NCBI GenBank assembly: GCA_045837725.1 | Contig: JBEWZL010000116.1 | Coordinates: 62,001 to 122,046, forward strand | Direction of reading: 5' to 3' | Source of the DNA: Vermamoeba vermiformis | Taxonomy: Eukaryota | Length of the DNA: 60,046 nucleotides | In this document: piece after piece, positions 54,983 to 58,000 of the stretch | Position numbering within the stretch: position 1 is the first letter of the stretch | How the letters are laid out: each line of letters begins with the position of its first letter | Translations under genes and position numbers: made by a program | The notes under the pieces: model-generated | Seen by the model: the letters and a program-made list of their open reading frames with translations, nothing else | Told to the model about the DNA's origin: nothing | The model's database searches: none

Positions 54983-55033
54983 GAATAAAGATAAAACAAT
55001 TTATTACAACTAAGAAAGAAGTGCCTGATAGTG

Positions 55034-58000
55034 CTATCTGGTAAAGTTTTCAATAACTTTGGACAAATCATATCCAAGGAGGTGAAGTGTATCTTGGTTA
55101 ATGTGCAACAAGTAATGCTCAGCTTCATCACCTGGGAAGAGGACCTTTGCTTCACAGTGGTCGGATGGAATTGTGATGTTGATTTGCAGAACTTTCTTTG
55201 GCAGTGGAGGAAGGGCTTGGATTGCTGAATAAACTGCTGGCTTTTTTATTTGCATACTGTTGGCATCTTTTCTGGTTTTACTGCAGTGATAAAATTGTGC
55301 AGGGTCAGTTTTTCTAACATTCTTTGTAAACTTGGCCTCTGATTTCTTGTTCCAAATAGACATTGCAAAGGTGACTAAAACTGGCTCACCATTATATTCT
55401 ACTTCAGGTTAGAACAAAAAATCTTAAGTTGACATACCTAAAAACCCAATGATGTCAGGACCAAGGTGAGCTGATGGCTGCAGCAAATATGAGTTTGGCT
55501 TCAGCAAGAAATAGAGAAGTTCAGCTTGCTTGTCCTTTTCAGCATTGCAAATTTTAAGGAGCTGTTGTGCTGTTTCTTTTGCAAGCTGGCCTTCTTTAAG
55601 CAATGTGCAAAGAAAAGTACTTTGTTGTAGTAAGGAGATGATTGATGGGTCTGAAGAGTTCAGCCATGCTTCAATTTTTGGCTGCAGTCTACAAACATCC
55701 TCAGCAATAGAGTTCATCAACTGATTGTTTATAACACTGCCACCTGCAATCCATTTGCAAACAGCTTGCTTGAGCCAAGCACCATGCTTGTTAACACTGA
55801 GATTTTGCAAAAATGTAGGAAAGTTATTAACCTGTAAAAGATATAAGTACATTAATCCAATCTCAGTCATTAAACTTTGCTGCTTACCAAAGTCCACAAT
55901 ACAAAGTGTTCAACAACATGTCCTTGAGGTTGCTTACAGAAAAGACCTTTAGTTGCTTTTAGATCCTCCAAAGAGCAACCAAGTTGCCTTGTAATAGTCT
56001 CCTGGGAGATTTCCTTGTTTGACAGAAGAGCCTTAACTACAAATGGCTCTTTGATGGAATAAACAAGCTCCCTATCTTCTTCAATTAAAGTGATTAGGAT
56101 AACCATCGATAAAGGATTAGAACATACCAGACTTTTCAATGAACAAAAATCCAGTGTCTTCAACACTGACCCCAGAGTACATTGTGTTAATTTGATCAAC
56201 ACTCCAACGAAGATTAGGGGCATAATGTTGTGCCAGAAGAACATGAATTAGATGCTGCAGAGCTATAAGGATTGTTAATGAAGATGAGGATTGAGGGTAG
56301 ACTTACAAACTCCTGCAGAAATCAACCTTTTCCAATGAGCTACAAAGTTCCTTTCCAAATCTTGTTGATGCTTTTGAAGAGCAGCAAGAAATATTTCATT
56401 CTTTTCATTTGCAGTGATTTGCAACTTGTGCTGCATAATTTCATTTGCAAGTACTCTGATAAATCCAAAGACATATCTAAGGCGCCCTTGAAGAACTTCT
56501 TTGGCCTGAGTGATGTGTTTCTTTTTGATGTCTGTGAAGTCAAAATATTCTTCAAGGCAATGCCAAGCATCATTGGGGATGACATATGGAAAGAAAAGTC
56601 CATTTTGCTTGTAAAAAAAGACCTTGCTGCCTTTCCCAGCTCCAGATTTGAGTGAGAATTCAAAGTCTGCCAATCTTGTGCCAGCTATAATTCTTATGCT
56701 TGTTTCTGGTAGTGAATAGATTGCTAGAATATGCAACAGAGAACATTTGCCCATGTCCTTAGTCAAGCCAAAGTCATCCTCTAGCCTTTCATAGTTATTA
56801 TCTAGAGCTATTTGGGCTTCATCAATAGCAAACCAAGCTCCAGTCAGATCAATGTACTTGGAGACAAGTGATTGCAAAGTATCTTCAGTGTCCATGACTT
56901 TAGCTTTAAGCTCAGTGTACCTGCAATACAGTAAAAAATGGAGCTTTGCAAACTTTCAACTTACAGTGCTTTTAGAAACAGACCTTGTACTTGCTCAATG
57001 TACTTTTGTCCTCCTTCATTTGTCCAAAAAATCCACTCTTCTGGTGTGATTGCAAATTTTGTTTTCATTTTTTGCAGCAGCATCAAATGGCAGAGCCAAA
57101 AGACAGAGCAACAGAGAGTTGCAACAGAAGTTTTGCTGTAACCAACCAATTCTCCCATGCTGTGTACTCTGTGGAGATAACAAATAAACCCCTTGAATGG
57201 AGCATCATGCTGTGCTAAATTAATACAACAATTTCATAAGGCTTCATCAGTTACATAGTCTTTTGGATCCATGGTTGATGCCATGCAGCATTCAGTGAAT
57301 ATCAAGAACTGTTTCCGTCCAACAGCATTGAGCATTGTTCCTTTGCAGAGATTAATCACAAGTTTAAGGGCAGTGTAAATGATTACCTGTCTTTCCTCCA
57401 CCAGAGAGGCCGTTCAAGGGAAACAAACGTTCAACAGGTGGATCTTGGGCAAACTCTGCAAATTTTTGATAAACAGGGTCTTCTCCAGTCTTTTCAATGA
57501 ATCTAACGTCAAATTTGTCTGGGCAGTAAGGATTAAAAGCAAGATCTTTCTTGTAAAAGCTTTGCAGCTTCTCCTTGTGCTTAGGTGCTGGTAAATCTGC
57601 AAGCTTTGTAAACTTCAAGTTTGCAACAACATCTTCAACAATTGCATTGAAATTGTCTTCATTGCCTGCAATAACAAGATTAATTATTACTTTACGTGTG
57701 CAAAAGTAGATTGACTTACAACGAGTAATTTTTTGTAAATTAAGGTAGACCATATCCATTGAACTCGGTGGTATTTGAGGGAACATTACAAGTTCTGCCC
57801 GAGAGAGATACGCCAAATTACTGCCATTGTCCGACCAAGCTCGAGCTTGATCTGGGGTCAAAGCCCCTAAACTCTCCAACCAGCATGCTACTTGCCTAGC
57901 GTTCCAATTTACAACTAAATAGCGTTAGTATAATAATAGAAATTATTAAGAGCGAGCTTACAGGCCTTTGGAAAATAAGTCTCGTTTGCATCGTGCAGTT

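Follow-up and report, generated by a model that had tools for sequence, protein, structure and literature searches.

A CpG desert over a predicted P-loop ATPase gene, a possible footprint of long-term local CpG methylation

We analyzed a 60,046-nt stretch of DNA (positions 62,001 to 122,046 of contig JBEWZL010000116.1, assembly GCA_045837725.1, deposited as Vermamoeba vermiformis), referred to in full as the window. It contains a desert of CpG dinucleotides that covers most of one predicted gene, here called the CpG-poor gene, and thins into the end of a convergent lyase gene. Throughout our interpretation, the host is read as a chytrid fungus. The features of the locus are as follows.

54931-57316 (2386 nt), no strand: core of the CpG desert, with 4 CpGs
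55034-57786, minus strand: CpG-poor gene, 9 exons, 792 codons, zero internal stops
57786-57720, 57665-57387, 57340-57255, 57209-56965 and 56920-56307, minus strand: exons 1-5 of the CpG-poor gene
56262-56128, 56078-55888, 55831-55438 and 55401-55034, minus strand: exons 6-9 of the CpG-poor gene
57210-57254, minus strand: intron 3 of the CpG-poor gene, 45 nt, in frame, GTAACT..CACAG
52553-54982, plus strand: open reading frame (ORF) of a heparinase II/III-like lyase (Pfam DUF4962 and Hepar_II_III_C), the convergent neighbour
54203-54930, plus strand: left shoulder, the 3' part of the lyase, with partial CpG loss
57316-57800, minus strand: right shoulder over the start of the CpG-poor gene (~132 codons plus intron 1), with 6 CpGs against 18.7 expected

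The CpG desert and the gene beneath it

The desert over 55000-57400 is confirmed. Between 54930 and 57411, CpGs start at only five positions (55162, 56107, 56208, 56483 and 57316), and this interval also contains the five longest gaps without a CpG in the whole window (945, 833, 275, 232 and 188 nt). The longest gap outside it is 172 nt, and the median and mean gaps of the window are 15 nt and 21.7 nt. In 1-kb bins, the ratio of observed to expected CpG (o/e) is 0.03 at 55001-56000 and 0.08 at 56001-57000, with intermediate values of 0.64 and 0.41 in the adjoining bins (54001-55000 and 57001-58000); the remaining 56 of the 60 bins range from 0.86 to 1.69. The 4 CpGs of the core compare with 114.7 expected at the window rate (Poisson probability 1e-43).

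The deficit is specific to CpG. CG o/e is 0.05 in the core and 1.22 in the rest of the window, TG and CA stand at 1.46 and 1.43 in the core versus 1.07 and 1.06 elsewhere, and G+C content is 38.2% in the core and 39.7% outside it. Compared with a host-like expectation, the core contains 213 TG (157 expected), 194 CA (144 expected) and 4 CG (106 expected). The deficit of ~102 CpGs is thus matched by a surplus of ~106 TpG and CpA (~56 TG and ~50 CA). Each of the eight NCG and CGN trinucleotides retains only 0.00-0.06 of the level it has outside the core, and so uniform a loss indicates no preference for a sub-context. An earlier reading made from the letters alone, hereafter the sequence-only reading, had described five CGs in 2.4 kb, abundant TG and CA, and a CpG-rich remainder of the window. 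Our counts agree with it, down to all five positions.

Both borders of the desert are spanned, at an even depth of ~700, by independently built contigs of a DNA sequencing run that is possibly the window's own source. An assembly chimera is therefore unlikely.

The gene beneath the desert was modelled from one relative. With P0019, the sole full-length relative found (831 residues, from the transcriptome of Arcella intermedia), a tblastn search aligned residues 7-811 collinearly with 57720-55052 on the minus strand. Removal of eight canonical GT..AG introns (54, 46, 45, 44, 44, 49, 56 and 36 nt) leaves a coding sequence of 2379 nt. The model is a prediction from tblastn collinearity and splice motifs. 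It bears on the lone nonsense codon that the sequence-only reading had attributed to a CGA>TGA change: this TGA (57234-57236) falls within intron 3, exactly where the P0019 alignment has a 15-residue gap. Most likely, therefore, the TGA is intronic and the CpG-poor gene intact.

In this eukaryotic family, fragments P0017, P0018, P0021 and P0023 break off at the exon-5 donor (56307/56306), where they read through into C[KMR]; this suggests that the intron position is conserved and old in the family. DNA depth across the desert equals that of the flanks, and comparison of the window with itself returned no second copy of the gene, only its self-match. On the basis of depth and self-comparison, the gene appears to be single-copy. 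A search for terminal inverted or direct repeats flanking the gene found none, and scans of the desert with Rfam and for transfer RNAs (tRNAs) gave no match.

Three RNA runs that carry the species label of the DNA run gave 0 reads at 95% identity on the 8 kb from 52000 to 60000, which amounts to no expression test. The label may extend to another strain or species; otherwise, every gene in this interval would be silent in the samples.

CpG loss at synonymous sites and in the neighbouring lyase

Codon-controlled expectations were calculated by keeping the amino-acid sequence fixed and taking codon usage from the 22 other ORFs of the window. On this basis, the CpG-poor gene should contain 98 CpGs (48 within codons and 50 at codon boundaries); the actual number is 9, of which the first 132 codons account for six. 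The other ORFs have observed/expected ratios of 0.70-1.37 in 22 of 22 cases within these 60 kb, in keeping with the earlier suggestion of a locus-specific effect. At synonymous third positions, C makes up 0.48 of C plus T in the gene, and 0.47 in host ORFs, when the next codon does not start with G. When it does, the share is 0.03 in the gene (0.01 in the core) versus 0.47 in host ORFs. Likewise, NCG accounts for 1 of 157 NCN codons in the gene and 271 of 1184 in the host. As the loss of third-position C is confined to the context before G, codon usage is otherwise host-like and the deficit is one of CpG only, unlike that of a foreign composition. The non-coding DNA of the gene (introns and spacer) has 2 CpGs in 425 nt. 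The CpG loss is mutational: introns, the spacer, synonymous sites and the adjacent gene are all affected, and it is not an effect of codon or amino-acid choice.

That neighbour provides our main argument for a regional process. The stop codon of the lyase lies 51 nt from that of the CpG-poor gene. Its named relatives are from the chytrids Obelidium and Rhizoclosmatium (40-47% identity), other relatives reach 83-87%, and we treat it as a genuine gene of the host, one with orthologues in chytrids. Along the lyase, the codon-controlled ratio is 0.70-1.54 up to 54202 and drops from 54203 onward, through 0.63, 0.56, 0.52 and 0.49 to 0.21. The 3' ~780 nt contain 21 CpGs versus 44.6 expected (Poisson 6.6e-5). 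In this part, the share of third-position C is 0.24 before G and 0.58 before other bases, and NCG makes up 4 of 78 NCN codons, versus 45 of 150 in the 5' part. Protein identity to the relative P0001 is 0.84-0.96 as far as 54802, then declines to 0.76 and 0.67 over the final ~60 codons. Amino-acid changes are weaker evidence: a CG>TG/CA change in the window codon could explain 6 of the 32 differences from P0001 in the 3' part, as against 2 of 73 further 5' (Fisher p=0.009). Synonymous decay in the lyase is thus graded with distance from the desert, which argues for a regional process acting in this genome. The fade into the 3' end of the lyase, and with it the proposed spread into the neighbour, had been described correctly.

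On the other side of the desert, the CpG deficit fades over 57.3-57.8 kb, and normal density returns from about 57.7-57.9 kb, close to the ~57.7 kb that the same reading had given. CpG o/e is 1.0-1.5 upstream from 57.9 kb, compared with <=0.1 in the gene body, and the 1.9 kb upstream has an o/e of 1.35. The presumed promoter of the CpG-poor gene is spared.

The CpGs that survive are located as follows.

56483-56484, minus strand: CGC arginine codon of LQGRLRY, invariant in the family alignment
57316-57317, minus strand: CGG arginine codon (AVGRKQF); the arginine is common to P0019 (AIGRNAF)
56208-56209, minus strand: CGT arginine codon (PNLRWSV); the arginine is not conserved in P0019
55162-55163, minus strand: codon boundary TCC|GAC
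56107-56108, minus strand: in intron 6

Arginine CGN codons hold three of the four exonic CpGs remaining in the core, and arginine is encoded by AGR at a rate of 75% in the gene versus 34% in host ORFs. A one-off hit on all CpGs would be expected to yield stops at CGA codons and to remove conserved arginines, and neither is seen. The intact frame, together with the retention of CpGs mostly at arginine codons, points instead to slow decay filtered by purifying selection.

Methylation and its alternatives

We favour, with a probability of roughly 0.7, an explanation by long-term, heritable CpG methylation restricted to this locus, with deamination filtered by purifying selection. This interpretation as a methylation footprint is well supported by the sequence, though unproven. 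5-Methylcytosine (5mC) deaminates to thymine. A chromatin patch of ~3 kb, centred on the body of this single-copy, intron-bearing P-loop ATPase gene, would carry heritable CpG methylation. CpGs that lack selective protection would then turn into TpG or CpA at third positions and codon boundaries, as well as in introns, the 3' untranslated region and the spacer. Methylation would thin over ~0.5-0.8 kb at both edges, leaving the last ~780 nt of the lyase and the first ~450 nt of the gene itself partially depleted and the promoter spared. The protein would have remained under purifying selection throughout, with its frame intact and CpGs left mostly in arginine codons. 5mC is the presumed cause of the loss, and the enzyme may be a maintenance-type DNMT1 or DNMT5, classes known in fungi. 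The rest of the genome is CpG-rich and presumably all but unmethylated. With five CpGs left, the mark has presumably destroyed most of its own substrate.

As to what kind of target the gene may be, we lean slightly towards a TE-like (transposable element-like) silencing target, by analogy with early-diverging fungi that target transposons and orphan genes; a transcription-coupled mark of the gene-body type is somewhat unlikely. Methylated gene bodies of animals have a bimodal CpG o/e, involve a large share of genes and are typically at 0.2-0.6. The present locus resembles them in its spared promoter, depleted body, TpG and CpA excess and preserved coding sequence. It differs in that a single gene is affected, at 0.05, in a kingdom reported, in passages of PMC7862722, to be without DNMT3. 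The 5mC enzymes that those passages name for fungi are DNMT1, DNMT5, DIM-2 and RID.

The locus fits the kind of TE-like CpG methylation (mCG) described on orphan genes in the early-diverging fungus Rhizophagus irregularis. According to sections of PMC8647823, 18% of Rhizophagus genes are highly mCG-methylated in a TE-like manner, repetitiveness is not required, and the mark lies on single protein-coding genes that are mostly orphans and mostly without a known domain, with a few Crinkler-domain genes among them. In that case methylation was measured, in a repeat-rich genome; in ours a footprint points to it, for a single gene within 60 kb of a chytrid genome that is rich in CpG, and decay is near-total, with an o/e of 0.05. 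Spizellomyces punctatus belongs to the same phylum, and parts of PMC12695648 describe rare local 5mC patches confined to transposons in this chytrid, with N6-methyladenine on active genes. The CpG-poor gene, in contrast, has no terminal repeats and no TE domain, is single-copy by depth and appears to encode an intact protein. For the chytrid Rhizoclosmatium globosum, a portion of PMC8298701 gives a very low global level of 5mC. PMC12543289 and PMC10538959 yielded no relevant data on DNA methyltransferases of chytrids.

Several observations weigh against the methylation explanation. The gene shows no transposon hallmark in the form of flanking repeats, and a promoter that has kept its CpGs is less easily reconciled with methylation of the silencing type. 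The absence of valine GTG codons from the gene is not explained by CpG decay. In the lyase, four of the six differences of the CpG-decay type are common to a third sequence, P0037, and their direction is therefore ambiguous. Of six polarisable, desert-derived changes in the gene family, only one is of the CpG type. In addition, gene methylation is rare in fungi and 5mC very low in early-diverging ones, as far as sections of PMC13297926 report.

An alternative that keeps the same decay of methylated CpG in place is that transcription set the target, either as animal-like gene-body methylation or through the convergent 3' overlap by way of antisense RNA or RNA interference. It would account for the sparing of the promoter and the first ~150-450 nt, and for a depletion that spans the body and continues into the convergent neighbour for 0.3-0.8 kb beyond the 3' end. 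With stops 51 nt apart the two transcripts probably overlap, and a gene under selection is presumably expressed. We nevertheless regard this as unlikely, since the depletion is uniform over 2.4 kb rather than centred on the 3' overlap, and since the 60 kb include only 1 affected ORF set out of 23, unlike in mosaic gene-body methylation. Moreover, fungi lack DNMT3 and have largely lost gene-body methylation, according to passages of PMC7862722 and PMC13297926.

The composition could also have been imported, through horizontal transfer or introgression of the gene from a donor genome or mobile element that is itself depleted of CpG. The gene family is tiny and patchy, with its only full-length relative in the Arcella transcriptome and no Pfam family, and the usage of valine GTG (0 of 45 codons) differs from that of the host. 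An import is nonetheless very improbable, given that third-position C and T outside CpG are used as in the host (0.48 vs 0.47) and that the introns, short and canonical, resemble the candidate introns of the host. DNA depth stays even at both junctions and, instead of stopping at a sharp border, the depletion grades into a bona fide host gene.

The sequence-only reading had proposed a locus-specific methylation or hypermutation defence resembling repeat-induced point mutation (RIP) or methylation induced premeiotically (MIP). Its core, a CpG-specific footprint of methylation type at one locus, is retained here, whereas a burst of the RIP or MIP kind, in which duplication or an enzyme drives C-to-T hypermutation of the gene, is more improbable still than an import. 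The C-to-T change is certainly extreme and confined to one stretch, and enzymes of the RID and Masc1 types exist in fungi (parts of PMC7862722). RIP in Neurospora and MIP in Ascobolus are likewise fungal defences in which cytosine methyltransferase-like enzymes bring about bounded C-to-T change or methylation. Both, however, depend on duplication, and RIP has a preference for CpA, raises the A+T content and disrupts reading frames; the present locus shows none of these features. Its frame of 792 codons is intact and free of stops, and the concentration of the remaining CpGs in arginine codons indicates slow, selection-filtered loss. Depth is even with the flanks, no second copy lies within the window, and there is no AT enrichment (G+C as above). 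The usual RIP index thresholds are 0.89 for TpA/ApT and 1.03 for (CpA+TpG)/(ApC+GpT). The core has values of 0.70 and 1.75 (0.79 and 1.16 in the rest of the window), which by these thresholds fall on the non-RIP side.

A pair of duplicated genes in the same window serves as a control for the effect of duplication.

34198-39855, plus strand: ABCA-type transporter, first copy of a 5.7-kb inverted duplication
41249-46934, minus strand: ABCA-type transporter, second copy, 88.8% identical to the first

The two copies, ~10 kb from the desert, are 94.5% identical over their last 620 nt and have a CpG o/e of 1.00 and 1.04. Since they keep their CpGs, duplication alone does not trigger CpG erasure here. 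Between them, transitions at CpG amount to 0.12 per site versus 0.057 at other C and G (~2x). With background CpG mutability this low, the desert requires a locally different state.

Selection against CpG in the transcript and chance or an assembly artefact have a very low probability, with nothing specific in their favour, the first because introns, spacer and the synonymous sites of the neighbour are also depleted, the second in view of the Poisson value of 1e-43 and the independent contigs that bridge both borders.

If the favoured explanation by methylation is correct, the locus adds a new example to a known class of footprint, one that comes from a chytrid and affects an intact, single-copy gene. 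A bolder version, which we consider doubtful, is that a chytrid whose genome is otherwise CpG-rich and unmethylated keeps a dedicated patch of heritable CpG methylation on a functional, non-repetitive, single-copy orphan gene for an AAA-like ATPase, through targeting that is independent of repeats. The gene might then be of selfish or foreign descent, with a target cue such as its transcript or the convergent overlap, and this would mean gene-specific, repeat-independent 5mC targeting in a fungus without DNMT3. In this version, the mark would have lasted long enough, with the protein under selection, to erase ~96% of the CpGs on which it depends, a natural case of an epigenetic mark that burns itself out. 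The locus bears on how a maintenance-only fungal toolkit picks its targets, chytrids and other early-diverging fungi being described as 5mC-poor, with the mark confined to transposons. Here one could ask what sets off methylation where no repeats are present, how far the mark extends and at what cost to a coding sequence. Scans of CpG o/e at gene resolution can reveal rare methylated loci in genomes that look globally unmethylated. Should many such deserts exist, or methylation be absent, the locus would be an ordinary compositional curiosity.

Protein family and further features of the window

The product of the CpG-poor gene has a Walker A motif (GLSGGGKT) and a Walker B motif (WFAIDEAQ), both common to P0019, and is best called an orphan AAA-like P-loop ATPase on the basis of its sequence. 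Its family is tiny, with 16 matches among 1.84 billion representatives. A search with full-length P0019 returned only itself, a search with the exon-8 ORF returned no relatives, and no homologous DNA was found in metagenome contigs (alignments A2 and A3) or viral contigs (A2).

The sequence-only reading had called the gene Crinkler-like, and selfish or toxic. Neither label is supported. Five exon ORFs of the gene had no Pfam match at E<=0.1, Crinkler included, and the Crinkler (CRN) header domain (PF20147) gave no Pfam match in P0019 at E<=10. P0019 does match AAA_22 below threshold (E 0.0056, 17.4 bits compared with a cut-off of 27). Its likeness to Crinklers and AAA_22-type ATPases consists of this match, the Walker A and B motifs and the neighbours proposed by a protein language model; the difference is that no Crinkler header domain was detected and that no family model reached its threshold. 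The closest of those neighbours are basidiomycete clusters (0.97-0.98). Further ones at 0.87-0.93, to be taken as leads only, include AAA_22, AAA_16, ORC-CDC6-like and some Crinkler-bearing clusters; clusters in which 45% and 79% of members have PF20147 reach feature scores of 0.93 and 0.87, again as leads only. Weak leads of this kind are all that would speak for either label. A Crinkler-like selfish gene under epigenetic control is described for teleosts in the abstract of PMC12957317, which we mention as context rather than as evidence for this locus.

PADLOC gave nothing significant, and neither did a profile search of the PDB, with AAR2 as its best hit (E 0.03). An AlphaFold2 model of P0019 from an 18-row alignment is poor, with a mean pLDDT (predicted local distance difference test) of 52. 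Its confident helical part matches AAA+ lid domains weakly in VIA-align, with Z 6-7.2 over ~80 residues; values below 8 are what a commonplace arrangement can produce.

Valine is encoded by GTG in 0 of 45 cases in the CpG-poor gene and in 86 of 316 in host ORFs (binomial 6e-7). On the coding strand of the gene, the core 54931-57316 has 38 CAC versus 11 GTG. The coding strand of the lyase has 33 CAC versus 14 GTG in its last 1 kb and 28 versus 30 in its first 2 kb. As CAC exceeds GTG in both of these convergent genes, the bias follows the direction of transcription of each, and it may be a strand-asymmetric component of the same regional process.

Short candidate introns (~40-90 nt) occur in the window. 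In a crude scan, 17 of 49 distinct candidate donors outside the CpG-poor gene read GTACG[TC], which contains a CpG; this holds for none of the eight donors of the CpG-poor gene, two of which read GTATGT.

The 58501-59500 interval upstream of the CpG-poor gene is AT-rich, with 29 TAT and 18 ATA per 500 nt, and has short perfect inverted repeats at 59353-59368 and 59417-59432. The other genes of the window are ordinary and comprise a PBZ/BRCT gene, an LRR gene, the two ABCA transporters and one tRNA-His. The tRNA-His (GTG anticodon; 3168-3239, minus strand) adjoins the PBZ/BRCT gene (3479-4468, minus strand), which has three PBZ zinc fingers.

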